Shown: piece after piece, positions 1,975 to 60,022 of the stretch
How the letters are laid out: each line of letters starts with the position of its first letter
How positions within the stretch are numbered: position 1 is the stretch's first letter
Source: Escherichia coli
GTDB taxonomy: Bacteria > Pseudomonadota > Gammaproteobacteria > Enterobacterales > Enterobacteriaceae
Length of the DNA: 64,000 nt
Strand: one strand, 5' to 3'
Assembly: GCF_030013595.1 (NCBI RefSeq)
Contig: NZ_CP122768.1
Translations under genes and position numbers: made by a program
Notes under the pieces: generated by a model
Databases searched by the model: none
The model's input: the letters and a program-made list of their open reading frames with translations, nothing else
Told to the model about the DNA's origin: nothing

Positions 1975-2271
1975 ATGAAAATAAACCAGCCCGCCGTTGC
2001 AGGCACCCTTGAGTCTGGGGATGTGATGATACGCATCGCCCCACTCGATACGCAGGATATCGACCTGCAAATCAACAGCAGCGTTGAGAAACAGTTTGGC
2101 GATGCAATTCGCACCACCATTCTGGACGTTCTCGCCCGCTACAACGTGCGCGGCGTACAGCTGAATGTCGATGACAAAGGCGCACTGGACTGCATTTTAC
2201 GTGCACGACTGGAAGCCCTGCTGGCACGCGCCAGCGGTATCCCGGCTCTGCCATGGGAGGATTGCCAATGA
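1975..2271 (+). CDS. citD: Citrate lyase acyl carrier protein (gamma subunit)
   Basis: 98-aa [27 protein letters not shown]...; position between citC and citE. Confidence 0.9.
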
Positions 2272-3176
2272 TTTCCGCTTCGCTGCAACAACGTAAAACT
2301 CGCACCCGCCGCAGCATGTTGTTTGTACCTGGTGCCAATGCCGCGATGGTCAGCAACTCCTTCATCTACCCGGCTGATGCCCTGATGTTTGACCTCGAAG
2401 ACTCCGTGGCATTGCGTGAAAAAGACACAGCCCGCCGCATGGTTTACCACGCGCTGCAACATCCGCTGTATCGCGATATTGAAACCATTGTGCGTGTAAA
2501 CGCGCTGGATTCCGAATGGGGTGTTAACGACCTGGAAGCCGTCGTTCGCGGTGGTGCGGACGTTGTGCGTCTGCCGAAAACCGATACCGCTCAGGATGTT
2601 CTGGATATCGAAAAAGAGATCCTGCGCATCGAAAAAGCCTGTGGTCGTGAACCCGGCAGCACCGGCTTGCTGGCGGCGATTGAATCTCCGCTGGGCATTA
2701 CCCGCGCAGTGGAAATCGCTCACGCTTCCGAGCGTTTGATCGGTATCGCCCTCGGTGCAGAAGACTATGTGCGCAACCTGCGTACAGAACGCTCCCCGGA
2801 AGGAACTGAACTGCTGTTCGCACGCTGCTCCATTTTGCAGGCCGCGCGCTCTGCGGGTATTCAGGCGTTCGATACCGTCTATTCCGACGCTAACAACGAA
2901 GCCGGATTCCTGCAAGAAGCCGCCCACATCAAACAGCTGGGCTTTGACGGCAAATCGCTGATCAACCCGCGTCAGATTGATCTGCTGCACAACCTCTACG
3001 CACCGACCCAGAAAGAAGTGGATCACGCCCGCCGCGTCGTAGAAGCCGCTGAAGCCGCCGCTCGCGAAGGCCTCGGCGTGGTTTCCCTGAATGGCAAGAT
3101 GGTGGACGGTCCGGTTATCGATCGCGCCCGTCTGGTGCTCTCCCGCGCAGAACTTTCCGGCATCCGCGAAGAATAA
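2268..3176 (+). CDS. citE: Citrate lyase beta subunit (citryl-CoA lyase)
   Basis: ORF 2253-3176; start at ATG 2268 ([10 protein letters not shown]...) gives 302 aa; ATGA overlap with the citD stop. Confidence 0.9.
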
Positions 3177-3186
3177 GGCAATCAAA

Positions 3187-4719
3187 ATGACGCAGAAAAT
3201 TGAACAATCTCAACGACAAGAACGGGTAGCGGCCTGGAATCGTCGCGCTGAATGCGATCTTGCCGCTTTCCAGAACTCGCCAAAGCAAACCTACCAGGCT
3301 GAAAAAGCGTGCGATCGCAAACTGTGCGCCAACCTGGAAGAAGCGATTCGTCGCTCGGGTTTACAGGACGGTATGACGGTTTCCTTCCATCACGCTTTCC
3401 GTGGCGGTGACCTGACCGTCAATATGGTGATGGACGTCATCGCGAAAATGGGCTTTAAAAACCTGACTCTGGCCTCCAGCTCCCTGAGTGATTGCCATGC
3501 GCCGCTGGTAGAACACATTCGCCAGGGCGTGGTTACCCGCATTTATACCTCTGGCCTGCGCGGTCCACTGGCGGAAGAAATCTCCCGTGGTCTGCTGGCG
3601 GAACCGGTGCAAATCCACTCTCACGGCGGACGTGTGCATCTGGTACAGAGCGGCGAACTGAATATCGACGTGGCTTTCCTCGGCGTCCCGTCCTGTGATG
3701 AATTTGGTAATGCCAACGGCTACACCGGTAAAGCCTGCTGCGGCTCCCTCGGCTATGCAATGGTTGATGCCGACAACGCGAAACAGGTTGTGATGCTCAC
3801 TGAAGAACTGCTGCCTTATCCACATAATCCGGCAAGCATTGAGCAAGATCAGGTTGATCTGATCGTCAAAGTTGATCGCGTTGGCGATGCCGCGAAAATC
3901 GGCGCTGGCGCGACCCGTATGACCACTAACCCGCGCGAACTGCTTATTGCCCGTAGCGCTGCGGATGTGATTGTCAACTCAGGCTACTTTAAAGAAGGTT
4001 TCTCCATGCAGACCGGCACCGGCGGCGCATCGCTGGCGGTAACCCGTTTCCTGGAAGACAAAATGCGTAGCCGCGATATTCGCGCCGACTTCGCCCTTGG
4101 CGGTATTACCGCAACGATGGTTGATCTGCACGAAAAAGGTCTGATCCGCAAACTGCTGGATGTACAGAGCTTTGACAGCCACGCGGCACAATCGCTGGCC
4201 CGTAACCCCAATCACATCGAAATCAGCGCCAACCAGTACGCTAACTGGGGTTCAAAAGGCGCATCGGTTGATCGTCTCGACGTGGTGGTACTGAGCGCGC
4301 TGGAAATTGACACCCAGTTCAACGTTAACGTGCTGACCGGCTCTGACGGCGTACTGCGTGGTGCTTCCGGTGGTCACTGCGATACCGCGATTGCCTCTGC
4401 ACTTTCCATCATCGTCGCACCGCTGGTACGCGGTCGTATTCCGACTCTGGTGGATAACGTGCTGACCTGCATCACCCCGGGCTCCAGTGTCGATATTCTG
4501 GTCACAGACCACGGTATCGCAGTTAACCCGGCACGTCCGGAATTGGCAGAACGTCTGCAGGAAGCGGGGATCAAAGTGGTTTCTATTGAGTGGCTGCGTG
4601 AACGTGCGCGTCTGCTGACCGGTGAACCACAGCCGATTGAATTCACCGACCGCGTCGTTGCCGTTGTGCGTTACCGCGATGGCTCGGTGATCGATGTTGT
4701 GCATCAGGTGAAGGAATAA
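3187..4719 (+). CDS. citF: Citrate lyase alpha subunit (citrate CoA-transferase)
   Basis: ORF 3091-4719; start at ATG 3187 (MTQKIEQSQRQE...) gives 510 aa. Confidence 0.9.
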   Translation: MTQKIEQSQRQERVAAWNRRAECDLAAFQNSPKQTYQAEKACDRKLCANLEEAIRRSGLQDGMTVSFHHAFRGGDLTVNMVMDVIAKMGFKNLTLASSSLSDCHAPLVEHIRQGVVTRIYTSGLRGPLAEEISRGLLAEPVQIHSHGGRVHLVQSGELNIDVAFLGVPSCDEFGNANGYTGKACCGSLGYAMVDADNAKQVVMLTEELLPYPHNPASIEQDQVDLIVKVDRVGDAAKIGAGATRMTTNPRELLIARSAADVIVNSGYFKEGFSMQTGTGGASLAVTRFLEDKMRSRDIRADFALGGITATMVDLHEKGLIRKLLDVQSFDSHAAQSLARNPNHIEISANQYANWGSKGASVDRLDVVVLSALEIDTQFNVNVLTGSDGVLRGASGGHCDTAIASALSIIVAPLVRGRIPTLVDNVLTCITPGSSVDILVTDHGIAVNPARPELAERLQEAGIKVVSIEWLRERARLLTGEPQPIEFTDRVVAVVRYRDGSVIDVVHQVKE

Positions 4720-4722
4720 GCC

Positions 4723-6127
<1,405 letters not shown>

Positions 6128-6176
6128 TAATTTAAGCACTTGATAAAATTGGAATATTAATTGTCGGAGAACCCGT

Positions 6177-7640
6177 ATGTCTTTAGCAAAAGATAATATA
6201 TGGAAATTATTGGCGCCCCTGGTGGTGATGGGTGTCATGTTTCTTATCCCTGTACCTGACGGTATGCCGCCGCAGGCGTGGCATTACTTTGCAGTGTTTG
6301 TGGCAATGATTGTCGGCATGATCCTCGAGCCAATTCCGGCAACGGCGATCAGTTTTATTGCGGTTACTATTTGCGTTATTGGCAGTAATTACCTGCTCTT
6401 TGATGCCAAAGAATTAGCTGACCCAGCGTTTAATGCGCAAAAACAGGCGCTGAAATGGGGTCTGGCTGGTTTTTCCAGCACCACGGTATGGCTGGTATTT
6501 GGCGCATTTATTTTTGCATTAGGGTATGAAGTTTCCGGGTTAGGCCGTCGTATTGCCCTTTTCCTGGTGAAATTCATGGGCAAACGCACGCTGACGTTGG
6601 GTTATGCGATTGTCATTATCGACATTCTGCTGGCACCGTTTACACCGTCCAACACCGCGCGTACCGGGGGTACGGTTTTTCCGGTCATTAAAAACCTGCC
6701 GCCGCTGTTTAAATCATTCCCGAACGATCCGTCCGCGCGTCGTATTGGCGGCTATTTGATGTGGATGATGGTCATTAGTACCAGTCTGAGTTCGTCCATG
6801 TTTGTCACCGGTGCGGCACCAAACGTGCTGGGTCTGGAGTTCGTCAGCAAAATTGCCGGTATCCAGATTAGCTGGTTGCAGTGGTTCCTCTGCTTCCTGC
6901 CGGTTGGGGTTATCTTGCTTATCATTGCGCCGTGGCTTTCCTACGTACTGTACAAACCGGAAATCACACACAGTGAAGAAGTGGCAACCTGGGCGGGTGA
7001 TGAACTAAAAACCATGGGTGCGCTGACGCGCAGAGAGTGGACGCTGATTGGCCTTGTATTGCTCAGCTTAGGTTTGTGGGTATTTGGCAGTGAAGTCATT
7101 AATGCTACTGCGGTAGGTCTGCTGGCAGTTTCGCTGATGCTGGCGCTGCACGTTGTGCCGTGGAAAGACATTACTCGCTATAACAGCGCATGGAACACGC
7201 TGGTCAACCTGGCAACGCTGGTTGTGATGGCTAATGGCCTGACCCGTTCTGGCTTTATCGACTGGTTCGCCAACACGATGAGTACACACCTGGAAGGCTT
7301 CTCACCAAACGCAACGGTGATTGTACTGGTTCTGGTGTTCTACTTTGCACACTACCTGTTTGCTAGCCTGTCTGCGCACACCGCAACCATGCTGCCGGTT
7401 ATTCTGGCCGTCGGTAAAGGTATTCCGGGCGTACCAATGGAACAACTGTGTATTCTGCTGGTGCTGTCTATCGGTATCATGGGCTGTCTGACGCCGTATG
7501 CAACCGGTCCTGGGGTGATTATTTACGGCTGTGGCTATGTGAAATCAAAAGATTACTGGCGTCTTGGCGCAATCTTCGGGGTGATTTACATCTCTATGTT
7601 GCTGTTGGTTGGCTGGCCGATTCTCGCCATGTGGAACTAA
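6177..7640 (+). CDS. citT: Citrate/succinate antiporter
   Basis: 487-aa highly hydrophobic ORF downstream of citG. Confidence 0.9.
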   Translation: MSLAKDNIWKLLAPLVVMGVMFLIPVPDGMPPQAWHYFAVFVAMIVGMILEPIPATAISFIAVTICVIGSNYLLFDAKELADPAFNAQKQALKWGLAGFSSTTVWLVFGAFIFALGYEVSGLGRRIALFLVKFMGKRTLTLGYAIVIIDILLAPFTPSNTARTGGTVFPVIKNLPPLFKSFPNDPSARRIGGYLMWMMVISTSLSSSMFVTGAAPNVLGLEFVSKIAGIQISWLQWFLCFLPVGVILLIIAPWLSYVLYKPEITHSEEVATWAGDELKTMGALTRREWTLIGLVLLSLGLWVFGSEVINATAVGLLAVSLMLALHVVPWKDITRYNSAWNTLVNLATLVVMANGLTRSGFIDWFANTMSTHLEGFSPNATVIVLVLVFYFAHYLFASLSAHTATMLPVILAVGKGIPGVPMEQLCILLVLSIGIMGCLTPYATGPGVIIYGCGYVKSKDYWRLGAIFGVIYISMLLLVGWPILAMWN

Positions 7641-7671
7641 TACGTTCGCCAAACGCTGAATAAATCATCAC

Positions 7672-7707
7672 GCCCGCCAGGTAAGCACACCTGGCGGGCT
7701 TTTTTAT
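7672..7707 (+). terminator. Rho-independent terminator after citT
   Basis: GC-rich inverted repeat cccgccagg / cctggcggg with a 9-nt loop, followed by a T-run (cttttttat). Confidence 0.75.
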
Positions 7708-7753
7708 GATTTAATAGATAGTATTCAGTGTATGTATGAGTTCCACACCCATT

Positions 7754-8560
7754 ATGAAAGCATTCTGGCGTAACGCCGCGTTGCTCGCGGTTTCTCTGCT
7801 TCCCTTCTCTTCTGCCAACGCCGTAGCGTTGCAGGCAAAACAGTATGGCGATTTTGATCGCTATGTCCTGGCCCTCTCATGGCAAACCGGATTTTGCCAG
7901 AGTCAACACGATCGAAATCGTAACGAACGAGATGAATGTCGCCTGCAAACCGAAACGACCAACAAAGCTGATTTTCTGACCGTACATGGTCTGTGGCCAG
8001 GATTGCCTAAATCGGTTGCTGCCCGTGGTGTTGATGAACGCCGCTGGATGCGCTTCGGTTGCGCTACTCGCCCAATCCCGAATCTACCAGAAGCGCGCGC
8101 CAGCCGAATGTGTTCATCGCCGGAAACCGGGTTATCGCTGGAAACGGCCGCTAAACTAAGTGAAGTCATGCCAGGAGCTGGCGGACGTTCCTGCCTGGAA
8201 CGCTACGAATATGCCAAACACGGTGCCTGCTTTGGTTTTGATCCAGACGCATACTTCGGCACGATGGTACGCCTGAATCAAGAAATTAAAGAGAGCGAAG
8301 CCGGAAAATTCCTTGCGGATAACTACGGTAAAACAGTGAGCCGCCGTGACTTTGACGCCGCCTTTGCCAAAAGCTGGGGAAAAGAGAACGTGAAAGCAGT
8401 TAAGCTAACGTGCCAGGGTAACCCTGCGTATTTGACTGAAATTCAGATCTCGATCAAAGCTGACGCCATCAACGCTCCGCTTTCTGCCAACTCATTCTTG
8501 CCACAACCACACCCAGGCAACTGTGGCAAAACCTTTGTGATTGATAAAGCAGGTTATTAA
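7754..8560 (+). CDS. rna: Periplasmic ribonuclease I
   Basis: ORF 7736-8560; start at MKAFWRNAALLAVSLLPFSSANA (signal peptide) gives 268 aa. Confidence 0.9.
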   Translation: MKAFWRNAALLAVSLLPFSSANAVALQAKQYGDFDRYVLALSWQTGFCQSQHDRNRNERDECRLQTETTNKADFLTVHGLWPGLPKSVAARGVDERRWMRFGCATRPIPNLPEARASRMCSSPETGLSLETAAKLSEVMPGAGGRSCLERYEYAKHGACFGFDPDAYFGTMVRLNQEIKESEAGKFLADNYGKTVSRRDFDAAFAKSWGKENVKAVKLTCQGNPAYLTEIQISIKADAINAPLSANSFLPQPHPGNCGKTFVIDKAGY

Positions 8561-8789
8561 TCCTCTGATTTACAAAACACGCTAATTCGTCTTCCATAAA
8601 CCATGACGATTAAGATTTATACATAATGCGCTACATTGAGGAATTCCCTGAATGTGACGCAAATCACTTCAAAGAGTGAGCAACAGTCAGTATCATCATG
8701 TGAGTTAAACCCTCGCCGCCTGACGGTGAGGGTTTTCTTTTGGGTATGTTTATCTGCGACACTCGCAGTACCGACGACATGGAGTAAAA

Positions 8790-9200: not shown

Positions 9201-9342
9201 TCCCATCTGCACAAGCGATAACTCGCTTTGCCCAGAGGATGCACTCGCATCCTCTTTCCGCTCAAATATCAACCAGATTTATCATTTTGCTCTTAAGCGC
9301 AGCATTCTAATCTGAACTGGTTATTCATCTGCGGAACCTCAT

Positions 9343-9432
9343 ATGAGCGAAGCTCTCGGTATCACTGCATTTTATATATTCATAGCCGCAATTATTGTTG
9401 CTGCAGTGCTATACCTTGAACAACGCTGGTAG
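9343..9432 (+). other. Candidate small hydrophobic ORF (29 codons), unconfirmed
   Basis: ATG at 9343 to TAG at 9430 translates MSEALGITAFYIFIAAIIVAAVLYLEQRW, a single predicted transmembrane helix; no strong Shine-Dalgarno seen. Confidence 0.25.
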
Positions 9433-9555
9433 CGCCTGGTTTTATTTATTTTCCAGCTCAATAGCAAATTCAGATCAAATCAGCCTCGCAAATCATAGAT
9501 TCATAACCAATAATGTGCTGTTATGTATACATGCAAAAACAAGGAGAGAATGCTT

Positions 9556-12404: not shown

Positions 12405-12775
12405 CTATACTTCCTCCGTGTTTTCGATGAGATGTAAGGTAACCAATTTTTGCCGATTCGGCTAATGCGTTTCCATTATCAAATCGATAAGTTTTACCTT
12501 ACAACCTTCGTAAGACAACTTTGTGAACTTTGCACCGCCAGCGGCGATAAAAAGTAAAATGGCCCCCTTTCCAGGTGACCGTGTAATCTGAACTACCCTT
12601 TGGTATCTTCAGCGCCTGCCTGCAGGCTGAGGTGTTGCCCTTACAAATGCAACAACGACATGGATTACAACACCCTCATAAACAAAGGGCAATCACCTGA
12701 TCTAAGCTCTTACCTATGACAGTGATAGGTTATGCCTTTTACCCGACTTTTGCACTGACTGAAAAGGACAAATTA

Positions 12776-14778: not shown

Positions 14779-15999
14779 ATGTCTATTTATAAAATCCCGC
14801 TTCCACTGAATATTCTGGAAGCTGCAAAAGAACGTATTACCTGGACACTTAACACCCTACCCCGCGTCTGCGTTTCTTTTTCGGGTGGTAAAGATTCCGG
14901 ATTAATGCTGCATCTGACCGCCGAACTTGCCCGACAAATGGGCAAAAAAATTTGTGTTTTATTTATCGACTGGGAAGCTCAGTTCTCTTGCACCATTAAC
15001 TATGTTCAGTCTCTGCGCGAGTTGTACACCGATGTCATCGAAGAGTTTTACTGGATTGCGCTCCCGCTTACAACGCAAAATTCCCTATCACAATACCAAC
15101 CCGAATGGCAGTGCTGGGAACCTGATGTCGAATGGGTACGTCAGCCCCCGCAAGATGCGATAACCGATCCTGACTTTTTCTCCTTTTACCAGCCTGGCAT
15201 GACCTTCGAACAATTTGTGCGTGAGTTTGCCGAATGGTTTTCGCAAAAACGTCCGGCGGCGATGATGATCGGCATCCGTGCGGATGAGTCCTACAACCGT
15301 TTTGTCGCCATCGCCAGTTTAAATAAACAACGTTTTGCCGATGATAAGCCCTGGACTACTGCCGCACCAGGCGGTCATAGCTGGTACATTTACCCCATCT
15401 ACGACTGGAAAGTCGCTGATATCTGGACCTGGTATGCTAGCCATCAACGCCTCTGTAACCCACTGTATAATATAATGTATCAGGCAGGCGTTCCTCTACG
15501 TCATATGCGAATTTGCGAACCTTTTGGTCCGGAACAACGGCAAGGATTATGGCTCTATCACGTTATCGAACCGGATCGCTGGGCTGCTATGTGCGCACGA
15601 GTCAGCGGGGTAAAAAGTGGCGGCATTTACGCCGGACATGACAACCATTTTTATGGTCATCGGAAAATCCTCAAGCCCGAACATTTAGACTGGCAGGAGT
15701 ATGCATTATTGCTACTCAACAGCATGCCGGAGAAAACAGCTGAGCATTATCGCAATAAAATCGCCATTTATTTGCACTGGTATCAGAAAAAAGGCATCGA
15801 GGTTCCACAAACCCAGCAAGGGGACATTGGCGCGAAAGATATCCCCTCCTGGCGGCGAATATGCAAAGTTTTACTCAATAACGATTACTGGTGTCGGGCA
15901 TTATCATTTAGCCCGACCAAAGCGAAGAACTATCAGCGTTATAACGAACGAATAAAAGGAAAACGTCAGGAATGGGGGATACTATGCAACAACGATTAA
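14779..15999 (+). CDS. ybdN: PAPS-reductase-like PP-loop ATP pyrophosphatase family protein (IbrA-like)
   Basis: 406-aa ORF with the PP-loop motif SFSGGKDS near the N-terminus. Confidence 0.8.
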   Translation: MSIYKIPLPLNILEAAKERITWTLNTLPRVCVSFSGGKDSGLMLHLTAELARQMGKKICVLFIDWEAQFSCTINYVQSLRELYTDVIEEFYWIALPLTTQNSLSQYQPEWQCWEPDVEWVRQPPQDAITDPDFFSFYQPGMTFEQFVREFAEWFSQKRPAAMMIGIRADESYNRFVAIASLNKQRFADDKPWTTAAPGGHSWYIYPIYDWKVADIWTWYASHQRLCNPLYNIMYQAGVPLRHMRICEPFGPEQRQGLWLYHVIEPDRWAAMCARVSGVKSGGIYAGHDNHFYGHRKILKPEHLDWQEYALLLLNSMPEKTAEHYRNKIAIYLHWYQKKGIEVPQTQQGDIGAKDIPSWRRICKVLLNNDYWCRALSFSPTKAKNYQRYNERIKGKRQEWGILCNND

Positions 16000-16600
16000 C
16001 GCAGGATTTAACCCAATTTCTCGCCAGCTTGCCGGAAGACGATCGCATCAAAGCGATTAATGAAATCCGCATGGCGATCCATCAGGTTAGCCCCTTTCGA
16101 GAAGAGCCAGTGGATTGCGTTCTGTGGGTTAAAACAGCCAACTTATGCCTAATGATTACAACCCAAACAACGTGGCACCACCCGAAAAAAAACTGCTGAA
16201 AAAATCCATTGAAATAGATGGTTTTACCCAACCCATTGTGGTCACGCATACGGATAAAAATGCCCTGGAAATCGTGGATGGTTTTCACCGCCATGAAATT
16301 GGTAAAGGCTCATCATCGTTAAAATTACGCTTAAAAGGTTATTTGCCGGTGACCTGTCTGGAAGGTACGCGTAATCAACGCATCGCCGCGACTATTCGTC
16401 ATAACCGCGCTCGTGGACGTCACCAAATCACTGCCATGTCAGAAATCGTCCGTGAACTCAGCCAGTTGGGATGGGACGATCATAAAATTGGCAAAGAGCT
16501 GGGAATGGACAGCGACGAAGTGCTACGCCTGAAGCAAATTAACGGCCTGCAAGAGTTGTTTGCCGACCGTCAATATTCCCGCGCCTGGACGGTTAAATAG
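15972..16600 (+). pseudogene. ybdM: ParB/sulfiredoxin-like protein (IbrB-like), apparently frameshifted
   Basis: Two overlapping ORFs in different frames (15972-16199 and 16145-16600) together span 629 nt, one short of the 630 nt expected for the ~209-aa protein; second part carries a DGFHRH ParB-like motif. Confidence 0.6.
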
Positions 16601-22725: not shown

Positions 22726-22726
<1 letters not shown>

Positions 22727-28901: not shown

Positions 28902-29906
28902 ATGTCTGGTTCTGTTGCCGTGACACGCGCCATTGCCGTGCCCGGATTGCTGTTATTACTGATTATCGCGACGGCATTAAGCCTGCTCATTGGGGCAAAA
29001 TCACTCCCCGCTTCCGTAGTGCTGGAGGCCCTCTCCGGCACCTGCCAGAGCGCCGACTGCACCATCGTGCTCGACGCGCGGCTGCCGCGCACCCTTGCCG
29101 GTTTACTGGCAGGCGGCGCGCTTGGGCTTGCCGGGGCGTTAATGCAAACCCTCACCCGAAACCCACTTGCCGACCCCGGCTTGCTTGGCGTGAACGCCGG
29201 AGCCAGCTTTGCCATTGTGCTGGGTGCGGCGCTGTTTGGTTACTCTTCCGCACAGGAACAACTGGCGATGGCCTTCGCCGGGGCGCTGGTGGCCTCATTG
29301 ATTGTTGCCTTTACCGGCAGCCAGGGCGGCGGGCAGTTAAGTCCGGTGCGTTTAACCCTGGCGGGCGTGGCACTGGCGGCGGTGCTGGAAGGGCTGACCA
29401 GCGGCATCGCCCTGCTTAATCCTGACGTCTACGATCAGTTGCGTTTCTGGCAAGCCGGTTCGCTGGATATTCGTAATTTACACACCTTAAAAGTAGTGCT
29501 GATCCCGGTGCTGATCGCCGGAGTAACCGCGCTATTACTGAGCCGCGCACTGAACAGTTTAAGCCTTGGCAGTGACACAGCGACGGCGCTGGGCAGTCGC
29601 GTGGCGCGCACACAGTTGATTGGTCTGCTGGCGATTACCGTGCTTTGCGGTAGTGCAACGGCGGTAGTTGGCCCGATTGCCTTTATTGGCCTGATGATGC
29701 CGCACATGGCGCGCTGGCTGGTAGGTGCCGATCATCGCTGGTCGCTGCCCGTCACGCTACTTGCCACCCCTGCCCTGCTGCTGTTTGCCGATATCATCGG
29801 GCGGGTGATTGTGCCCGGCGAGTTGCGCGTTTCTGTGGTCAGTGCCTTTATTGGCGCACCGGTGCTGATCTTCCTCGTGCGACGTAAAACGCGAGGTGGC
29901 GCATGA
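28902..29906 (+). CDS. fepD: Ferric enterobactin ABC transporter permease
   Basis: ORF 28890-29906; start at MSGSVAVTRAIAVPGLL... gives 334 aa. Confidence 0.85.
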   Translation: MSGSVAVTRAIAVPGLLLLLIIATALSLLIGAKSLPASVVLEALSGTCQSADCTIVLDARLPRTLAGLLAGGALGLAGALMQTLTRNPLADPGLLGVNAGASFAIVLGAALFGYSSAQEQLAMAFAGALVASLIVAFTGSQGGGQLSPVRLTLAGVALAAVLEGLTSGIALLNPDVYDQLRFWQAGSLDIRNLHTLKVVLIPVLIAGVTALLLSRALNSLSLGSDTATALGSRVARTQLIGLLAITVLCGSATAVVGPIAFIGLMMPHMARWLVGADHRWSLPVTLLATPALLLFADIIGRVIVPGELRVSVVSAFIGAPVLIFLVRRKTRGGA

Positions 29907-30895
29907 TTTACGTCTCTCGCCGATTAATCATCACCTGTTTGCTGCTAATTACCGCCTGTGTGGTTGCAGGTATCTGGGGATTACGCAGCGGTACCGTCAC
30001 GCTGGAAACCTCGCAGGTATTCGCCGCGCTGATGGGCGATGCGCCGCGCAGTATGACGATGGTGGTCACCGAATGGCGTTTACCACGCGTGCTGATGGCG
30101 CTGTTAATTGGCGCGGCTCTGGGCGTCAGCGGCGCGATTTTTCAGTCGCTGATGCGTAACCCGCTCGGTAGCCCTGACGTAATGGGCTTTAACACCGGGG
30201 CGTGGAGCGGCGTGCTGGTGGCGATGGTGCTGTTTGGTCAGGACCTGACGGCTATCGCGCTGGCAGCAATGGCGGGCGGCATTGTCACCTCGTTGCTGGT
30301 CTGGCTGCTCGCCTGGCGTAACGGCATCGACACCTTTCGGTTGATTATTATTGGTATCGGCGTTCGCGCCATGCTGGTGGCCTTTAATACCTGGCTGTTG
30401 CTGAAAGCGTCTTTAGAAACGGCGCTAACAGCGGGTTTGTGGAATGCCGGATCGCTCAACGGCCTGACGTGGGCAAAAACCTCGCCTTCCGCACCCATCA
30501 TTATATTGATGCTAATTGCCGCCGCCTTACTGGTACGCCGGATGCGCTTGCTGGAAATGGGCGATGATACCGCGTGTGCGCTGGGCGTCAGCGTCGAACG
30601 TTCGCGGCTGTTAATGATGCTGGTCGCCGTAGTGCTTACCGCAGCTGCCACTGCCCTGGCGGGGCCGATTTCCTTTATTGCTTTAGTCGCGCCACACATT
30701 GCCCGCCGCATTAGCGGCACCGCTCGCTGGGGGCTGACCCAGGCGGCGCTGTGCGGGGCGTTGTTATTACTGGCGGCCGATCTCTGCGCCCAACAACTGT
30801 TTATGCCGTATCAACTTCCGGTTGGCGTCGTTACCGTCAGCCTCGGCGGTATTTACCTTATCGTCTTGTTAATTCAGGAGTCTCGCAAAAAATGA
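29903..30895 (+). CDS. fepG: Ferric enterobactin ABC transporter permease
   Basis: 330-aa ORF overlapping the fepD stop by 4 nt. Confidence 0.9.
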   Translation: MIYVSRRLIITCLLLITACVVAGIWGLRSGTVTLETSQVFAALMGDAPRSMTMVVTEWRLPRVLMALLIGAALGVSGAIFQSLMRNPLGSPDVMGFNTGAWSGVLVAMVLFGQDLTAIALAAMAGGIVTSLLVWLLAWRNGIDTFRLIIIGIGVRAMLVAFNTWLLLKASLETALTAGLWNAGSLNGLTWAKTSPSAPIIILMLIAAALLVRRMRLLEMGDDTACALGVSVERSRLLMMLVAVVLTAAATALAGPISFIALVAPHIARRISGTARWGLTQAALCGALLLLAADLCAQQLFMPYQLPVGVVTVSLGGIYLIVLLIQESRKK

Positions 30896-31707
30896 CCGAA
30901 TCAGTAGCCCGTTTGCGTGGCGAACAGTTAACCCTCGGATATGGCAAATATACCGTTGCGGAAAATCTGACTGTAGAAATACCTGATGGTCACTTCACGG
31001 CAATTATCGGGCCAAATGGCTGCGGTAAATCCACGTTACTGCGTACCTTAAGCCGCCTGATGACGCCTGCTCACGGGCATGTCTGGCTGGATGGTGAGCA
31101 CATTCAACATTACGCCAGTAAAGAGGTTGCACGCCGGATTGGCCTGTTGGCGCAAAATGCCACCACGCCGGGCGATATCACCGTGCAGGAGCTGGTGGCG
31201 CGTGGACGTTACCCACATCAACCGCTGTTTACCCGCTGGCGGAAAGAAGATGAAGAGGCAGTCACAAAAGCGATGCAGGCCACGGGAATAACTCATCTGG
31301 CAGATCAAAGCGTGGATACCCTTTCTGGCGGACAACGCCAGCGAGCGTGGATCGCGATGGTGCTGGCCCAGGAAACGGCAATTATGCTGCTCGACGAACC
31401 CACGACCTGGCTGGATATCAGTCATCAGATTGATCTACTGGAACTGCTAAGCGAACTGAACCGCGAGAAAGGCTATACCCTGGCGGCAGTGCTGCACGAT
31501 CTTAATCAGGCCTGTCGTTACGCCAGTCATTTGATTGCATTGCGGGAAGGGAAAATTGTTGCTCAGGGAGCGCCGAAGGAGATTGTCACTGCTGAATTGA
31601 TCGAGCGCATTTATGGTCTGCGCTGCATGATTATTGACGATCCGGTAGCCGGAACGCCGCTTGTGGTGCCGCTCGGACGAACGGCACCTTCAACTGCCAA
31701 GATTTAA
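30892..31707 (+). CDS. fepC: Ferric enterobactin ABC transporter ATPase
   Basis: ORF 30751-31707; start at MTESVARLRGEQLTLGY... gives 271 aa; Walker A GPNGCGKST; ATGA overlap with fepG. Confidence 0.9.
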   Translation: MTESVARLRGEQLTLGYGKYTVAENLTVEIPDGHFTAIIGPNGCGKSTLLRTLSRLMTPAHGHVWLDGEHIQHYASKEVARRIGLLAQNATTPGDITVQELVARGRYPHQPLFTRWRKEDEEAVTKAMQATGITHLADQSVDTLSGGQRQRAWIAMVLAQETAIMLLDEPTTWLDISHQIDLLELLSELNREKGYTLAAVLHDLNQACRYASHLIALREGKIVAQGAPKEIVTAELIERIYGLRCMIIDDPVAGTPLVVPLGRTAPSTAKI

Positions 31708-36000: not shown

Positions 36001-36934
36001 GGGTTGCCAGTTCAGGCAGCGTTTCTTGCTCCGCAATATGAATACCCAGCGGCAAAACGTTGAGCACGGGTCCGGTAGCCGTCAGCGCCGCCGAGCCCAG
36101 TCGACGCATAAAGATAAATCCGGCGGCGTAGTCCATGCGATTGCACAATCGCCCCAGCCATAAGGCCGTCAGCGCAAGGGCTAAATCGGTACGCTGCACA
36201 CCTGAAAGTTGCGTAGCCAGCTGGCGGAATTCCCCGTCGGTAAATTCCAGTTTCAGGCGCAAAATATCTGCCGAAGCGCTGCGCCCCGGTAAAGGTGCCG
36301 GAGAAAGTGACGCGGGCGGCGGCAGTTGACGACGCTGTTCCGCCCAGAATGCCGCATCACGCTGCCAGGCTTCGCTTTCGCGGTATTGCTGGTACTCCTC
36401 CACTACATCAGCGAAAGGCGTAAACGGCGAAGCAGGCGTTGGTTCGCCACGCAGCCATGCGCAGTAAATATTGGCGATCTGGCGAGTAATGGCCGGGAAA
36501 CTGAAGCCATCGACCAGCAAATGGTGATAACGCTGATACCAGTACCAGCGGTTATCCGCCACCTGATTGAGCTGATGAAAGACCAGCGGTTTGCCGCTGT
36601 CGGCACGTAGATTTTGCTGTAAATCCGCCTGCATTAATGCCTGCGCAGTACCGTGCGGATCAATGTTGGTTCGCAGGTCGATAATTTCTGGTAGTTCAAA
36701 CGTCAGCGCATCATCGACCCATTGCCAGACTTCGCCGTTATCTTCCGTAAAACGCATCCGCAGCGTATCTGCTTGCGCTAATCCGGCAACCACCGCGCGG
36801 GCCAGTAATGGCGCATCAACCTCTCCGGTTAACTCAACGTAATGCGCCACGCTCCAGGCGGAGGGTAAATCCGACAGTTTTTCTGCCATCCAGATGCCGG
36901 GCTGTGCGGCGACCAATGGTAAATGCTGGCTCAT
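33053..36934 (-). CDS. entF: Enterobactin synthase component F (NRPS: C-A-PCP-TE, serine-activating)
   Basis: ORF 33053-37072; start at MSQHLPLVAAQPGIWMAEK... gives 1293 aa; adenylation (FTSGSTGRPKG), PCP (GGHSLLAMK) and thioesterase (GYSLGG) motifs. Confidence 0.9.
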   Translation of the reverse strand: MSQHLPLVAAQPGIWMAEKLSDLPSAWSVAHYVELTGEVDAPLLARAVVAGLAQADTLRMRFTEDNGEVWQWVDDALTFELPEIIDLRTNIDPHGTAQALMQADLQQNLRADSGKPLVFHQLNQVADNRWYWYQRYHHLLVDGFSFPAITRQIANIYCAWLRGEPTPASPFTPFADVVEEYQQYRESEAWQRDAAFWAEQRRQLPPPASLSPAPLPGRSASADILRLKLEFTDGEFRQLATQLSGVQRTDLALALTALWLGRLCNRMDYAAGFIFMRRLGSAALTATGPVLNVLPLGIHIAEQETLPELATRLAAQLKKMRRHQRYDAEQIVRDSGRAAGEEPLFGPVLNIKVFDYQLDIPGVQTQTHTLATGPVNDLELALFPDEHGDLSIEILANKQRYDEPTLIQHAERLKMLIAQFAADPALLCGDVDIMLPGEYVQLAQINATQVEIPETTLSALVAEQAAKTPDAPALADARYLFSYREMREQVVALANLLRERGVKPGDSVAVALPRSVFLTLALHAIVETGAAWLPLDTGYPDDRLKMMLEDARPSLLITTDDQLPRFADVPDLTSLCYNAPLTPQGSAPLQLSQPHHTAYIIFTSGSTGRPKGVMVGQTAIVNRLLWMQNHYPLTGDDIVAQKTPCSFDVSVWEFFWPFIAGAKLVMAEPEAHRDPLAMQQFFAEYGVTTTHFVPSMLAAFVAPLTPQTARQNCATLKQVFCSGEALPADLCREWQQLTSVPLHNLYGPTEAAVDVSWYPAFGEELAQVRGSSVPIGYPVWNTGLRILDAMMHPVPPGVAGDLYLTGIQLAQGYLGRPDLTASRFIADPFAPGERMYRTGDVARWLDNGAVEYLGRSDDQLKIRGQRIELGEIDRVMQALPDVEQAVTHACVINQAAATGGDARQLVGYLVSQSGLPLDTTALQAQLRETLPPHMVPVVLLQLPQLPLSANGKLDRKALPLPELKAQAPGRTPKAGSETIIAAAFSSLLGCDVQDADADFFALGGHSLLAMKLAAQLSRQFARQVTPGQVMVASTVAKLATIIDGEEDSSRRMGFETILPLREGNGPTLFCFHPASGFAWQFSVLSRYLDPQWSIIGIQSPRPSGPMQTAANLDEVCEAHLATLLEQQPHGPYYLLGYSLGGTLAQGIAARLRARGEQVAFLGLLDTWPPETQNWQEKEANGLDPEVLAEINREREAFLAAQQGSTSTELFTTIEGNYADAVRLLTTAHSVPFDGKATLFVAERTLQQGMSPERAWSPWIAELDIYRQDCAHVDIISPGAFEKIGPIIRATLNR

Positions 36935-40875: not shown

Positions 40876-40975
40876 TGCCGGATGCGGCGTGAACGCCTTA
40901 TCCGGCCTACAAAAATCTTGCCAATTCAATATATTGCAGGACCACGTAGGCCTGATAAGCGTAGCGCATCAGGCA
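40876..40975. repeat. REP / BIME-like palindromic units between fepA and entD
   Basis: gccggatgcggcgtgaacgccttatccggcctac, then an inverted partner gtaggcctgataagcgtagcgcatcaggc. Confidence 0.7.
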
Positions 40976-41742: not shown

Positions 41743-43080
41743 CATAAGCGCTAACTTAAGGGTTGTGGTATTACGCCTGATATGATTTAACGTGCCGATG
41801 AATTACTCTCACGATAACTGGTCAGCAATTCTGGCCCATATTGGTAAGCCCGAAGAACTGGATACTTCGGCACGTAATGCCGGGGCTCTAACCCGCCGCC
41901 GCGAAATTCGTGATGCTGCAACTCTGCTACGTCTGGGGCTGGCTTACGGCCCCGGGGGGATGTCATTACGTGAAGTCACTGCATGGGCTCAGCTCCATGA
42001 CGTTGCAACATTATCTGACGTGGCTCTCCTGAAGCGGCTGCGGAATGCCGCCGACTGGTTTGGCATACTTGCCGCACAAACACTTGCTGTACGCGCCGCA
42101 GTTACGGGTTGTACAAGCGGAAAGAGATTGCGTCTTGTCGATGGAACAGCAATCAGTGCGCCCGGGGGCGGCAGCGCTGAATGGCGACTACATATGGGAT
42201 ATGATCCTCATACCTGTCAGTTCACTGATTTTGAGCTAACCGACAGCAGAGACGCTGAACGGCTGGACCGATTTGCGCAAACGGCAGACGAGATACGCAT
42301 TGCTGACCGGGGATTCGGTTCGCGTCCCGAATGTATCCGCTCACTTGCTTTTGGAGAAGCTGATTATATCGTCCGGGTTCACTGGCGAGGATTGCGCTGG
42401 TTAACTGCAGAAGGAATGCGCTTTGACATGATGGGTTTTCTGCGCGGGCTGGATTGCGGTAAGAACGGTGAAACCACTGTAATGATAGGCAATTCAGGTA
42501 ATAAAAAAGCCGGAGCTCCCTTTCCGGCACGTCTCATTGCCGTATCACTTCCTCCCGAAAAAGCATTAATCAGTAAAACCCGACTGCTCAGCGAGAATCG
42601 TCGAAAAGGACGAGTAGTTCAGGCGGAAACGCTGGAAGCAGCGGGCCATGTGCTATTGCTAACATCATTACCGGAAGATGAATATTCAGCAGAGCAAGTG
42701 GCTGATTGTTACCGTCTGCGATGGCAAATTGAACTGGCTTTTAAGCGGCTCAAAAGTTTGCTGCACCTGGATGCTTTGCGTGCAAAGGAACCTGAACTCG
42801 CGAAAGCGTGGATATTTGCTAATCTACTCGCCGCATTTTTAATTGACGACATAATCCAGCCATCGCTGGATTTCCCCCCAGAAGTGCCGGATCCGAAAAG
42901 AAGAACTAACTCGTTGTGGAGAATAACAAAAATGGTCATCTGGAGCTTACAGGTGGCCATTCGTGGGACAGTATCCCTGACAGCCTACAAAACGCAATTG
43001 AAGAACGCGAGGCATCGTCTTAACGAGGCACCGAGGCGTCGCATTCTTCAGATGGTTCAACCCTTAAGTTAGCGCTTATG
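41743..43080 (+). mobile_element. IS186 insertion sequence (IS4 family), complete, 1338 bp
   Basis: 23-bp terminal inverted repeats cataagcgctaacttaagggttg (41743-41765) and caacccttaagttagcgcttatg (43058-43080); identical 10-bp direct repeats ggattactcc at 41733-41742 and 43081-43090. Confidence 0.9.
41960..43072 (+). CDS. insL: IS186 transposase (DDE)
   Basis: ORF 41792-43072; start placed at MSLREVTAWAQL... to give the ~370 aa I recall for InsL; start uncertain. Confidence 0.75.
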   Translation: MSLREVTAWAQLHDVATLSDVALLKRLRNAADWFGILAAQTLAVRAAVTGCTSGKRLRLVDGTAISAPGGGSAEWRLHMGYDPHTCQFTDFELTDSRDAERLDRFAQTADEIRIADRGFGSRPECIRSLAFGEADYIVRVHWRGLRWLTAEGMRFDMMGFLRGLDCGKNGETTVMIGNSGNKKAGAPFPARLIAVSLPPEKALISKTRLLSENRRKGRVVQAETLEAAGHVLLLTSLPEDEYSAEQVADCYRLRWQIELAFKRLKSLLHLDALRAKEPELAKAWIFANLLAAFLIDDIIQPSLDFPPEVPDPKRRTNSLWRITKMVIWSLQVAIRGTVSLTAYKTQLKNARHRLNEAPRRRILQMVQPLS

Positions 43081-43101: not shown

Positions 43102-43254
43102 CTACTTCTTCGGTTCGTAAGCGAGAACAGCCTTAAACTCAATATTACGTTCCTTCACCGTAAACTCACACAGCGAGTCTCCGACCAGAAGCGTAAATCC
43201 CAGTACCGTCAAACACAGCACTATGACTGCCACAAGGGCATATTTCGTCAGCAT
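43102..43254 (-). CDS. hokE: Hok-family small toxic membrane peptide (type I toxin)
   Basis: Minus-strand 50-codon [53 protein letters not shown], typical Hok; stop codon lies 21 bp from the IS186 target duplication. Confidence 0.85.
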
Positions 43255-43680
43255 GTTTATATTGCCTCCATGCGAAGAAGGGACTACCATCCAAATTGTC
43301 TGGTTTGGAGTGGCAGCCCCAGGGTTGATAGAAATATCTCCTGGGGCTTCATCTTTCCAGACCTCAGAGTAAACCTGAAACCGGAAAGCTTCAGGCACCC
43401 GCCGTTATCTTACCCTTCCTCAGCAAAATAGCTGTTTATTTATACAGTGAGTCCTGTTTCGGACTTCTCACTCCTCATTTGATCAACTGAAGCTGAACCC
43501 GTTTTTTTCTGCATGCCTCAATCGTCAAAATTCTTCGCCACCAGCCAGCTCTGCCATAACTTGTCACATTGCAGAAGTAGCCAAACTTCTTCAGTCACAA
43601 TCAGTTCACCATCACCAAAAAAAGAAACATTCCAGAACTTCCGCATCTCGCCCAGTCGCTCCCACTTCTATACTGAATAG

Positions 43681-47672: not shown

Positions 47673-47673
47673 T

Positions 47674-53957: not shown

Positions 53958-53980
53958 TTATTCTCTCCTGGAGTTAAAAA

Positions 53981-55363: not shown

Positions 55364-55432
55364 AGGCTCATAATTTCTGGTGATTTTATGCCGCCAACTT
55401 TACTCGCCAGGCTCTGATTTTCCGGTGACAGG

Positions 55433-55454
55433 AAAATGACAAAATTGTCATTTT
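55433..55454. promoter_or_regulatory. CusR box in the divergent cusC / cusR promoter region
   Basis: Perfect palindrome aaaatgacaaaattgtcatttt. Confidence 0.8.
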
Positions 55455-55519
55455 GCCAATAAGCGATTGCCATCTGATCCCGCTACTCTAGAATTGCCCG
55501 GGCAACATGCGGAGGAAAT

Positions 55520-56203
55520 ATGAAACTGTTGATTGTCGAAGATGAAAAGAAAACCGGAGAATACTTGACCAAAGGGTTAACCGAAGCCGGTTTTGTGGTC
55601 GATTTGGCCGACAACGGGCTGAATGGCTACCATCTGGCGATGACCGGTGATTATGACCTGATAATCCTCGATATTATGCTGCCAGACGTGAACGGCTGGG
55701 ATATCGTGCGTATGTTGCGTTCCGCCAATAAAGGGATGCCGATTCTGTTGCTTACCGCGCTTGGCACCATTGAACATCGCGTCAAGGGGCTGGAGTTGGG
55801 GGCCGATGACTATCTGGTGAAGCCGTTCGCTTTTGCTGAACTGCTGGCGCGGGTGCGCACTCTCCTGCGGCGCGGGGCGGCGGTGATTATCGAAAGTCAG
55901 TTTCAGGTTGCCGATCTGATGGTCGATCTCGTCAGCCGCAAAGTCACCCGCAGCGGCACGCGCATCACTTTGACCAGTAAAGAATTTACTTTGCTGGAGT
56001 TTTTCCTCCGCCATCAGGGTGAAGTGCTGCCCCGCTCGCTTATCGCCTCGCAGGTGTGGGACATGAATTTCGACAGCGATACCAACGCCATTGATGTGGC
56101 GGTGAAGCGGCTGCGCGGCAAAATCGACAACGACTTTGAGCCGAAGCTGATTCAAACCGTGCGCGGCGTGGGCTACATGCTTGAGGTGCCGGATGGTCAG
56201 TAA
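55520..56203 (+). CDS. cusR: Copper-responsive response regulator (OmpR family)
   Basis: 227-aa [28 protein letters not shown]... Confidence 0.95.
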
Positions 56204-57635
56204 GCCATTTCAGCGCCCGTTTTCGCTGGCAACCCGCCTGACCTTTTTTATCAGCCTCGCCACCATCGCGGCGTTTTTCGCCTTTGCATGGATCATGATC
56301 CACTCGGTAAAAGTGCATTTTGCCGAGCAGGATATTAATGATTTAAAAGAGATTAGCGCCACCCTTGAACGGGTACTTAATCACCCTGACGAAACGCAAG
56401 CCCGACGCTTAATGACGCTGGAAGATATCGTCAGTGGTTATTCCAATGTGTTGATCTCCCTGGCAGATAGCCACGGTAAAACGGTATATCACTCCCCCGG
56501 TGCGCCCGATATCCGCGAGTTTGCACGTGATGCCATACCCGATACAGACGCGCGGGGTGGCGAGGTGTATCTCCTTTCCGGCCCGACAATTATGATGCCG
56601 GGCCACGGTCACGGGCATATGGAACACAGCAACTGGCGGATGATTAACTTGCCGGTTGGCCCGTTGGTGGACGGCAAACCGATTTATACGCTCTACATTG
56701 CGCTTTCGATCGATTTTCATCTTCATTACATAAATGATTTGATGAATAAACTTGTAATGACCGCATCGATCATTAGCATCCTGATCGTCTTTATCGTGCT
56801 GTTGGCGGTACATAAAGGTCACGCGCCGATCCGCAGCGTCAGCCGTCAAATCCAGAACATTACCTCGAAAGATCTCGACGTTCGCCTTGACCCGCAGACC
56901 GTGCCGATTGAGCTGGAACAGTTGGTACTGTCGTTCAACCATATGATCGAGCGTATTGAGGATGTCTTTACCCGCCAGTCCAATTTCTCAGCGGATATCG
57001 CCCACGAAATTCGTACACCGATTACGAATCTCATAACGCAAACCGAAATCGCCCTCAGCCAGTCGCGCAGCCAGAAGGAGCTTGAAGATGTGCTCTACTC
57101 TAATCTCGAAGAGCTGACGCGAATGGCGAAAATGGTCAGCGATATGTTGTTTCTCGCCCAGGCCGATAACAACCAGTTAATCCCCGAAAAGAAAATGCTC
57201 AACCTGGCGGATGAAGTCGGCAAAGTGTTCGATTTTTTCGAGGCGTTAGCGGAAGATCGCGGCGTGGAGTTGCAGTTTGTTGGTGACGAGTGTCAGGTTG
57301 CGGGCGATCCGCTGATGTTGCGTCGGGCGTTAAGCAACCTGCTTTCGAACGCCCTGCGTTATACGCCAACCGGAGAGACAATTGTAGTGCGCTGTCAAAT
57401 GGTCGATCACCAGGTGCAAGTTTCCGTCGAAAACCCCGGTACGCCCATTGCGCCCGAACACTTACCGCGATTGTTTGACCGTTTCTATCGCGTTGACCCC
57501 TCCCGTCAGCGAAAAGGCGAAGGTAGCGGCATTGGTCTGGCGATAGTGAAATCGATAGTTGTCGCGCATAAAGGCACGGTTGCAGTAACGTCAGATGCTC
57601 GGGGGACAAGGTTTGTTATCACATTACCCGCTTAA
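56193..57635 (+). CDS. cusS: Copper-sensing histidine kinase
   Basis: ORF 56181-57635; start at [16 protein letters not shown]... gives 480 aa; overlaps the cusR stop. Confidence 0.9.
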
Positions 57636-57784
57636 TTATTCAGCAAACGGCAACTTTTATAACCAGTGTAAAAATAACGTGCCGCAATAGTCATACCTAT
57701 TAATGGTAAAAAGCTGTCACAATTCATAAAAAACCTTAATATACGCCACCCTAAACATAACCAGCGTTAATGTAAGGTTTTTGT

Positions 57785-60022
57785 GTGGACTGGCTTCTTG
57801 ATGTTTTTGCTACCTGGCTCTACGGCTTAAAAGTAATCGCGATAACGTTAGCGGTCATCATGTTCATCAGCGGGCTGGACGATTTTTTTATTGATGTCGT
57901 CTACTGGGTACACCGCATTAAACGCAAGTTGAGTGTTTATCGCCGCTACCCGCGAATGAGTTACCGCGAACTGTATAAACCAGATGAAAAACCGTTAGCG
58001 ATCATGGTTCCGGCGTGGAATGAAACGGGCGTCATCGGCAATATGGCCGAGCTGGCGGCGACCACGCTCGACTATGAAAACTATCATATCTTTGTTGGCA
58101 CCTACCCCAACGACCCCGATACTCAGCGTGATGTTGATGAAGTGTGCGCTCGCTTCCCAAACGTGCATAAGGTAGTCTGCGCGCGTCCTGGCCCCACCAG
58201 CAAAGCCGACTGCCTGAACAACGTGCTGGACGCCATCACCCAGTTTGAGCGTAGCGCCAATTTCGCTTTTGCTGGTTTTATTCTGCATGACGCCGAAGAC
58301 GTAATTTCACCGATGGAATTGCGTCTGTTCAACTATCTGGTCGAGCGTAAAGATCTGATTCAGATCCCGGTATACCCATTCGAACGCGAATGGACGCACT
58401 TCACCAGCATGACTTACATTGATGAGTTTTCAGAACTGCATGGCAAAGATGTTCCGGTGCGTGAAGCCCTCGCCGGACAGGTGCCCAGCGCAGGCGTCGG
58501 TACTTGTTTCAGCCGCCGCGCCGTGACCGCACTGTGAGCTGACGGTGACGGTATTGCTTTCGACGTGCAGAGTCTTACTGAAGATTACGACATTGGTTTC
58601 CGCCTGAAAGAAAAAGGTATGACGGAAATTTTTGTCCGTTTTCCGGTGGTGGACGAAGCCAAAGAACGCGAGCAGCGTAAATTTTTACAGCACGCACGGA
58701 CGTCAAACATGATCTGCGTGCGCGAATATTTCCCCGATACCTTTTCGACTGCGGTTCGACAAAAATCTCGCTGGATCATCGGCATTGTTTTCCAGGGCTT
58801 TAAAACCCACAAATGGACCTCCAGCCTGACGCTGAACTACTTTCTCTGGCGCGACCGCAAAGGGGCAATCAGTAACTTTGTCAGCTTCCTCGCGATGCTG
58901 GTGATGATCCAGCTTTTGCTGTTACTGGCGTATGAAAGTTTGTGGCCCGATGCCTGGCATTTCCTTTCTATTTTCAGCGGCAGCGCATGGTTAATGACCC
59001 TGCTGTGGCTAAACTTTGGTTTGATGGTTAACCGCATCGTGCAGCGGGTGATTTTTGTCACTGGCTACTACGGTCTGACGCAGGGGCTGCTATCTGTCCT
59101 GCGTCTTTTCTGGGGCAACCTGATTAACTTCATGGCCAACTGGCGCGCGTTAAAACAGGTACTTCAACACGGCGATCCACGTCGCGTCGCGTGGGATAAA
59201 ACAACGCATGACTTCCCCAGCGTGACTGGCGATACCCGCTCGTTGCGCCCGTTAGGCCAAATTCTGCTGGAAAATCAGGTCATCACTGAAGAACAACTCG
59301 ATACAGCACTGCGTAATCGCGTCGAAGGTCTACGCCTGGGCGGTTCAATGCTGATGCAGGGGCTGATTAGCGCCGAACAGCTGGCACAGGCGCTGGCAGA
59401 GCAAAACGGCGTGGCGTGGGAGTCGATCGACGCCTGGCAGATCCCTTCATCACTGATTGCCGAAATGCCGGCCTCCGTGGCGCTGCATTATGCAGTACTG
59501 CCGCTGCGTCTGGAAAATGATGAGTTAATTGTCGGCAGTGAAGATGGTATTGACCCGGTTTCGCTGGCGGCCCTGACGCGTAAAGTCGGACGCAAAGTGC
59601 GTTACGTCATTGTTCTGCGGGGACAAATTGTCACGGGGTTACGCCACTGGTATGCGCGCCGACGCGGTCACGATCCGCGGGCAATGTTGTACAATGCGGT
59701 TCAGCATCAGTGGCTCACGGAACAGCAGGCCGGTGAAATCTGGCGGCAATATGTGCCGCATCAGTTCCTGTTCGCCGAAATACTGACCACGCTCGGTCAT
59801 ATTAATCGTTCAGCAATTAACGTGTTGTTATTGCGCCATGAACGTAGTTCTCTGCCGCTCGGCAAGTTTTTGGTCACCGAAGGCGTTATCAGCCAGGAAA
59901 CGTTGGATCGCGTCCTGACAATTCAACGCGAATTACAAGTTTCGATGCAATCACTATTACTCAAAGCAGGTTTAAACACAGAACAGGTTGCGCAACTGGA
60001 GTCCGAAAATGAAGGAGAATAA
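57785..60022 (+). pseudogene. nfrB: Phage N4 adsorption protein B (inner membrane glycosyltransferase-like) interrupted by an in-frame TGA
   Basis: ORFs 57785-58537 and 58565-60022 are in the same frame, separated only by TGA at 58535-58537; total 745 sense codons plus stop, matching full-length NfrB as I recall it. Confidence 0.7.

Follow-up and report, generated by a model that had tools for sequence, protein, structure and literature searches.

Nine pairs of co-directional genes overlap in the stretch of Escherichia coli DNA analyzed here (64,000 nucleotides [nt] of contig NZ_CP122768.1, hereafter the window), and one of them, nfrB/nfrA, has a premature stop codon in its upstream gene. In all likelihood these are ordinary operon junctions: the short overlaps are likely used by termination-reinitiation, the long overlaps by Shine-Dalgarno-driven initiation, and the nfrB stop probably lowers the expression of nfrA and ybcH. 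The overlaps are already annotated junctions of known E. coli operons, and the only strain-specific features among them are the nfrB stop and a frameshift in ybdM.

The window carries, in order, dpiB and citCDEFXGT, ahpCF, ybdNM, the ent/fep enterobactin cluster, an insertion sequence (IS), IS186, with hokE, cusCFBA-cusRS, and nfrBA-ybcH. The first 20 kb are present in 5,408 of 5,426 complete E. coli genomes. Gene coordinates are those of the Prokaryotic Genome Annotation Pipeline (PGAP), transferred from the nearest complete genome, NZ_CM149870.1 (strain HCP5S3_I2). Each open reading frame (ORF) of the window was checked for its start codon, stop codon and internal stops.

Overlapping junctions and their start codons

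An earlier note on the window had listed eight overlaps with their lengths. Each is present as described, and the list was incomplete, since a ninth co-directional pair, ybdZ/entF, had been missed (Table 1). In all nine pairs the genes lie on the same strand and overlap, leaving no room between them for a terminator or a promoter. The pairs belong to seven transcription units: citCDEFXGT, ybdNM, entCEBAH, fepDGC, fes-ybdZ-entF, cusRS, and nfrBA-ybcH. A paper by Kiino et al. from 1993 on nfrB and nfrA reportedly has a title beginning "Two overlapping genes...", as given in a reference list. The K-12 MG1655 annotation gives identical lengths for all nine co-directional overlaps and agrees with the window at fepC/fepE and nfrA/ybcH as well.

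The frequency of overlaps in the window is typical for the species. Overlaps occur in 9 of the 38 co-directional neighbor pairs (24%). Counted by spacing, nine pairs lie at −8 to +6 nt and three at +9 to +12 nt. In E. coli K-12, 707 of 2,987 pairs (24%) lie at −8 to +6 nt and 203 (7%) at +9 to +12 nt (Huber et al. 2023, PMC10666635). The commonest distance in K-12 is −4, followed by −1 and −8 (PMC10666635). The rates in the window match the published rates, and together with the K-12 annotation they bear out the description of these overlaps in the earlier note as normal for tightly packed operons.

Although the overlaps are no more numerous than expected by chance, the sequence at the junctions is clearly non-random in its Shine-Dalgarno signal. 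Pairing of the anti-Shine-Dalgarno sequence of 16S rRNA with the 20 nt before each overlapped start averages −7.7 kcal/mol over the nine junctions, compared with −2.6 kcal/mol for 1,445 out-of-frame ATG, GTG, or TTG triplets within window genes and −5.9 kcal/mol for all annotated window starts. Random sets of nine were drawn 100,000 times, and no set had a mean as strong as that of the nine starts (P<1e-5). At each of the nine junctions the Shine-Dalgarno motif of the downstream gene lies within the 3' end of the upstream gene (−5.6 to −10.3 kcal/mol). The motif is kept in 76–100% of orthologous junctions in enterobacterial loci.

It is conceivable that some overlaps are annotation artefacts, in which the true downstream start lies further along and the genes do not overlap, but this is extremely improbable. 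Two pairs do have a second in-frame ATG nearby, in citG (5255) and in ybdM (15984). The alternative ATG of ybdM has a stronger Shine-Dalgarno motif than the annotated start (−8.4 versus −5.6 kcal/mol), and plasmid homologues of ybdN/ybdM overlap by 16 nt. However, starting at either alternative ATG would leave an overlap with the preceding gene, of 20 nt in citG and 16 nt in ybdM. When all in-frame start codons between the preceding in-frame stop and +150 nt were considered, the annotated start was the best or co-best candidate at all nine junctions. The first start that would avoid the overlap lacks a Shine-Dalgarno motif in every pair and costs 7 to 49 residues, removing conserved N-terminal features. 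Such starts would deprive NfrA of its signal peptide, CusS and FepG of their first membrane helices, and EntA of its GxGxxG motif; the remaining proteins would lose 7–28 N-terminal residues. The homologous start codons are also retained in silS, the plasmid counterpart of cusS, and in 63–80 enterobacterial loci. With the overlap-avoiding starts lacking Shine-Dalgarno motifs and truncating the proteins, the overlaps are not annotation artefacts, and no credible alternative start removes them. The claim of the earlier note that the overlaps constrain start-site choice therefore stands. The annotated starts are sound at the nine junctions, with ambiguity only in citG (2 codons) and ybdM (4 codons).

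Table 1. Overlapping junctions and associated features of the window
Feature	Position	Strand	Description
citD/citE	2268-2271	+	4 nt, ATGA; Shine-Dalgarno GGGAGGA upstream, −10.2 kcal/mol
citX/citG	5249-5274	+	26 nt; second in-frame ATG (5255) would shorten it to 20 nt
ybdN/ybdM	15972-15999	+	28 nt; alternative in-frame ATG (15984) would shorten it to 16 nt
ybdM A4 run (A5 in relatives)	16127-16130	+	One-base deletion; frameshift after about codon 53
entB/entA	base 22726	-	1 nt, TAATG
fepD/fepG	29903-29906	+	4 nt, ATGA
fepG/fepC	30892-30895	+	4 nt, ATGA
fepC/fepE stop codons, convergent	31704-31707	.	Shared palindromic TTAA; not a coupling junction; same in K-12
ybdZ/entF	36931-36934	-	4 nt, ATGA; Shine-Dalgarno −10.3 kcal/mol
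cusR/cusS	56193-56203	+	11 nt
Premature TGA in nfrB	58535-58537	+	Codon 251 of 745; L251*
nfrB/nfrA	60009-60022	+	14 nt
nfrA/ybcH	62979-62984	+	nfrA TAA followed by ybcH ATG, 0-nt gap (62981/62982)

Proposed translational coupling at short and long overlaps

The products of the pairs with short overlaps are physical partners or consecutive pathway enzymes. FepD, FepG, and FepC form an ATP-binding cassette transporter, CitD and CitE are subunits of citrate lyase, YbdZ is an MbtH-like protein that acts with EntF, and EntB is paired with EntA. At the short overlaps (−4 with ATGA, −1 with TAATG), a ribosome ending the upstream gene most likely restarts at the adjacent start codon by termination-reinitiation. 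The intragenic Shine-Dalgarno motif would assist the restart, and the output of partner proteins would thereby be linked. At the long overlaps (11–28 nt), Shine-Dalgarno-driven initiation on a tightly packed polycistronic mRNA appears more probable, and coupling may be weaker. The length of a long overlap would then be a drifting by-product of the position of the upstream stop codon.

Experiments on other E. coli genes are consistent with this division. Translation of the downstream gene depended on translation of the upstream gene in four of five native −4 pairs tested (PMC6728339). Removal of the Shine-Dalgarno motif usually lowered reinitiation by 60–100%, and moving the stop codon about 38 nt away (+38) nearly abolished it (PMC6728339, PMC10666635). 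Coupling is steeply dependent on distance, and the range of −8 to +10 nt is treated as predictive (PMC10666635). E. coli pairs within this range are 4.5-fold enriched for subunits of heteromeric complexes (PMC10666635). In the window, citD/citE, entB/entA, fepD/fepG, fepG/fepC, and ybdZ/entF fall within the range, at −4 or −1, whereas cusR/cusS (−11), nfrB/nfrA (−14), citX/citG (−26), and ybdN/ybdM (−28) fall outside it. The coupled pairs of Huber et al. (2019, 2023) are other genes than the nine studied here, but they share the ATGA/TAATG geometry, the intragenic Shine-Dalgarno motif, and protein products that often belong to the same complex.

Some of the short junctions are highly conserved. 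A scan for FepG in species-representative genomes yielded 80 loci from about 20 enterobacterial genera, in which the orthologous stops and homology-projected starts were located by a custom script. The fepD/fepG junction is at −4 in 77 of 79 loci, as ATGA in 46, GTGA in 29, and TTGA in 2, and fepG/fepC is at −4 in 78 of 80. The entB/entA junction is at −1 in 57 of 70 loci (TAATG in 30, TGATG in 23, TAGTG in 4) and at −4 in 9. The ybdZ/entF junction is less constant, being at −4 in 30 of 63 loci and at +10 in 14. For comparison, the commonest spacing of non-overlapping neighbors in the same loci accounts for 42% at entE/entB, 68% at entC/entE, 41% at entA/entH, and 17% at fes/ybdZ. Retention of the geometry while the start and stop codons change suggests that at fepDGC and entBA it is the geometry as such that is preserved. 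This conservation fits termination-reinitiation coupling at fepD/fepG, fepG/fepC, and entB/entA. A side result of the scan was an enterobacterial-type fep locus, with 83% FepG identity, in CACSKA010000002.1, which is titled Chryseobacterium sp. 18061 and is probably a mislabelled or contaminated assembly.

The long overlaps differ in length among relatives, which is the first of several points that weigh against coupling as a general property of the nine pairs. A search for NfrA homologues returned mostly fragments and two informative junction contexts. E. coli has a 14-nt nfrB/nfrA overlap; in an Escherichia-like contig of 91% identity the two genes abut (0 nt), and in Plesiomonas they share 1 nt (TGATG). 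The Escherichia-like contig clearly keeps the nfrA ATG; the alignment at the Plesiomonas junction is too poor to judge. In the same Escherichia-like contig nfrA is split into ORFs of 384 and 601 amino acids (4001-6972), another natural nfr lesion. The plasmid genes silRS, paralogous to cusRS, encode a response regulator and kinase homologous to CusRS. Close to where the regulator gene ends, a conserved CCG-GAT-G contains the kinase ATG. At this homologous ATG the silR/silS overlap is 8 nt (ATGCATAG), compared with 11 nt for cusR/cusS, because the silR stop codon is one codon earlier. Plasmid pairs encoding a phosphoadenosine phosphosulfate (PAPS) reductase and a ParB-N protein, related to ybdN/ybdM, overlap by 16 nt rather than 28 nt. 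In the cit cluster of Enterococcus faecium, citX/citG overlap by 8 nt rather than 26 nt. In that cluster citE/citF (−8) and citF/citX (−4) overlap and citD/citE do not, whereas citD/citE overlap in the window. The variation indicates that tight packing is conserved, but not one particular overlap.

The remaining counterpoints concern initiation itself. All nine starts have Shine-Dalgarno motifs sufficient for independent initiation, and the local mRNA at the starts does not fold more stably than shuffled sequence (z −0.87 to +1.42). Concealment of the downstream ribosome-binding sites by mRNA structure was thus rejected, as no junction folds better than shuffled sequence. Without blocking structure, independent initiation is possible, most of all for the overlaps of 11–28 nt. 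The bioBF pair, with a −4 overlap, is initiated independently, and is the one exception among the five native pairs of Huber et al. (PMC6728339). The searchable literature yielded no coupling experiment on any of the nine pairs, and nothing relevant on coupling at fepDGC or citXG. Finally, some retention of the geometry would be expected even if coupling were not selected, since insertions or deletions at a junction damage one of the two genes.

These points could be taken to mean that the overlaps arose neutrally, from the turnover of start and stop codons in tightly packed operons, with independent Shine-Dalgarno initiation and no functional coupling. The varying lengths of the long overlaps, the different cit junctions that overlap in E. 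coli and E. faecium, the inconstant ybdZ/entF spacing, the usable Shine-Dalgarno motif without unusually stable structure at every start, and the bioBF exception would all agree with such an origin. Nevertheless, it seems rather unlikely for the window as a whole. Geometries retained in 81–98% of loci across about 20 genera despite substituted start and stop codons, the coupling of most tested −4 pairs, and the enrichment of closely spaced pairs for complex subunits all argue against it. Five of the window pairs, in the fep, cit, and ent systems, encode known physical partners. From the positions, motifs, and conservation of the junctions we infer termination-reinitiation at the short overlaps and Shine-Dalgarno-driven initiation at the long ones. 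The translational coupling proposed in the earlier note is therefore indirectly supported for the −4 and −1 pairs, by their geometry and by conservation in fepDGC and entBA, and is less certain for the long overlaps, which are outside the predictive range and variable in length.

The nfrB stop codon and its probable effect on nfrA

Codon 251 of nfrB is TGA in the window and a leucine codon, TTA, in the nearest relative and in K-12, the result of a T-to-G change at position 58536. A 61-mer around the TGA has no full-length exact match in 5,037 genomes. The L251* allele itself is private among these genomes; natural nfrB stops in general are already known, premature stops, IS insertions, and deletions having been reported in natural E. 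coli (Sellner et al. 2021, PMC8669472). The operon status of nfrBA-ybcH and the 14-nt nfrB/nfrA overlap have also been published (Junkermeier & Hengge 2021, PMC8669469). The window has the same operon order and overlap as the operon of that study, but its nfrB is broken at codon 251.

The stop falls ahead of both catalytic motifs of NfrB, TED (D267) and QxxRW (W330), and also ahead of its membrane helices and its MshEN cyclic di-GMP domain. The catalytic motifs, the membrane helices, and the MshEN domain are all required for function (PMC8669469). A stop ahead of every required part indicates a null allele, and the Nfr exopolysaccharide and phage N4 receptor system of this strain is predicted to be non-functional. 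Single deletion of either nfrB or nfrA abolishes phage N4 infection and the effect on motility (PMC8669469). Since nfrB is already null and either single deletion abolishes Nfr function, any polarity of the stop on nfrA has little phenotypic weight.

Polarity on nfrA, as raised in the earlier note, is nonetheless plausible. Between the TGA and the nfrA start (60009) lie 1,471 nt that are untranslated and part of the same transcription unit. The in-frame restart codons after the TGA (GTG at 58565, ATG at 58619) have poor Shine-Dalgarno motifs, the best at −3.6 kcal/mol. A gap of this length is far beyond the distance for reinitiation and would remove any coupling between nfrB and nfrA. E. coli transcripts bearing long untranslated stretches are unstable (PMC6728339). 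The exposed transcript would be subject to Rho termination and decay, and the output of nfrA and ybcH would probably be lower. Given the untranslated length and the instability of such transcripts, reduced expression of nfrA and ybcH is plausible in this strain. Polarity has also been a practical consideration at this locus, where the position of an epitope tag was chosen to avoid polar effects on nfrA initiation (Junkermeier & Hengge 2021, PMC8669469).

Two features may soften the effect. After the TGA, the C-rich, G-poor segments expected of a Rho-loading site are modest, reaching a C/G of 1.47 (58658-58858 and 59058-59298). The mRNA where nfrA is initiated is unusually open (mean unpaired probability 0.68), so some translation of nfrA may persist in the absence of nfrB translation.

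Other explanations of how this locus might be expressed were considered and rejected. Consensus matches for an internal nfrA promoter or an intrinsic terminator within nfrB are at chance level. Recoding of the TGA, as selenocysteine or otherwise, is contradicted by the leucine codon (TTA) in the 5,037 other genomes, by the lack of a hairpin in the downstream 66 nt, whose folding does not exceed that of shuffled sequence (z +0.98), and by the lack of an Rfam match.

Private mutations and possible recurrent loss of nfrB

Between the window and its nearest relative, HCP5S3_I2, there are 18 single-nucleotide polymorphisms (SNPs), two deletions of one base each, and an IS186 insertion of 1.3 kb. 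Ten of the 13 coding SNPs alter a protein or, once, a start codon (nine amino-acid changes and one nonsense change), and three are synonymous. This share of protein-changing SNPs is unusually high, as expected of very recent divergence or of residual sequence errors.

One of the deletions disrupts ybdM, a lesion absent from the earlier note. The A5 run of other genomes is shortened to A4, and the shifted frame then meets a stop at 16197; the deletion is shared by none of 4,986 complete E. coli genomes. The 28-nt ybdN/ybdM overlap here thus leads into a disrupted gene, and ybdM may be a pseudogene in this strain. The second private deletion (43610-43616) turns an A8 run into A7 and is intergenic, upstream of ybdK.

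Both deletions are in homopolymers, so an assembly error is possible. It could be supposed that the nfrB TGA and the ybdM deletion are both sequencing or assembly errors and that the two genes are intact. Both changes are private to the window among about 5,000 complete genomes, the deletions in A-runs (A5 to A4 in ybdM, A8 to A7 at ~43616) are the classic form of homopolymer error, and the SNPs relative to the nearest genome are mostly nonsynonymous. However, nfrB was altered by a T-to-G substitution that lies in no homopolymer, comparable lesions of nfrB are known from natural E. coli (PMC8669472), and the nearest relative has an nfrB lesion of its own. Errors in both genes are therefore improbable.

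Additional differences and features of the window were also observed. K-12 MG1655 (b0568-b0617) belongs to a different lineage and is about 94–98% identical to the window. Relative to K-12, the window has nfrB L251*, the ybdM frameshift, and an inverted IS186, and is without ybdR. The IS186 copy (41744-43079) lies between entD and hokE and is not present in the nearest relative. Its site is the same as that of IS186B in K-12, but its orientation is inverted with respect to the flanking genes, suggesting an independent insertion into a hotspot. The ybdR gene, located between uspG and yldA in K-12, is missing at 9262-9537, where the window has about 276 bp in place of the roughly 1.6 kb of K-12. 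Matches to Rfam above the gathering score comprise the rnk leader (8636-8744), STnc70 (12549-12642, minus strand), ES036 (40912-40953), and the sok antitoxin RNA of hokE (43246-43400, minus strand); no Rfam match of the window is at an overlap junction.

Three of the 18 SNPs fall in nfrB (within the part at 57785-58537), which occupies 3.5% of the window (post-hoc binomial P ~0.02). The changes in the window are R43H (57912) and L251* (58536). In HCP5S3_I2 the GTG start codon of nfrB is changed to GTA (57787; 21441 in the stretch of the relative), and PGAP then annotates an ATC start. The loss of the start codon was read in HCP5S3_I2, whose sibling LCP30S3_I5 is an equally close match. Independent nfrB lesions in sister lineages provide a hint of selection against the Nfr system. 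Repeated selection for inactivation of the nfr locus in this E. coli lineage is a tentative proposal, and a doubtful one.

If the nfr locus is indeed under such selection, the lesions could represent natural parallel escape from N4-like phages or relief from the burden that the Nfr exopolysaccharide places on motility. In that case, given the 14-nt nfrB/nfrA junction, any upstream nonsense mutation would be likely to knock down the whole operon. Even so, this would be a modest addition to the known pattern of nfrB loss. Beyond this lineage, the junction geometry of fepDGC and entBA is held across the Enterobacteriaceae, which fits stoichiometric co-production of partner proteins.

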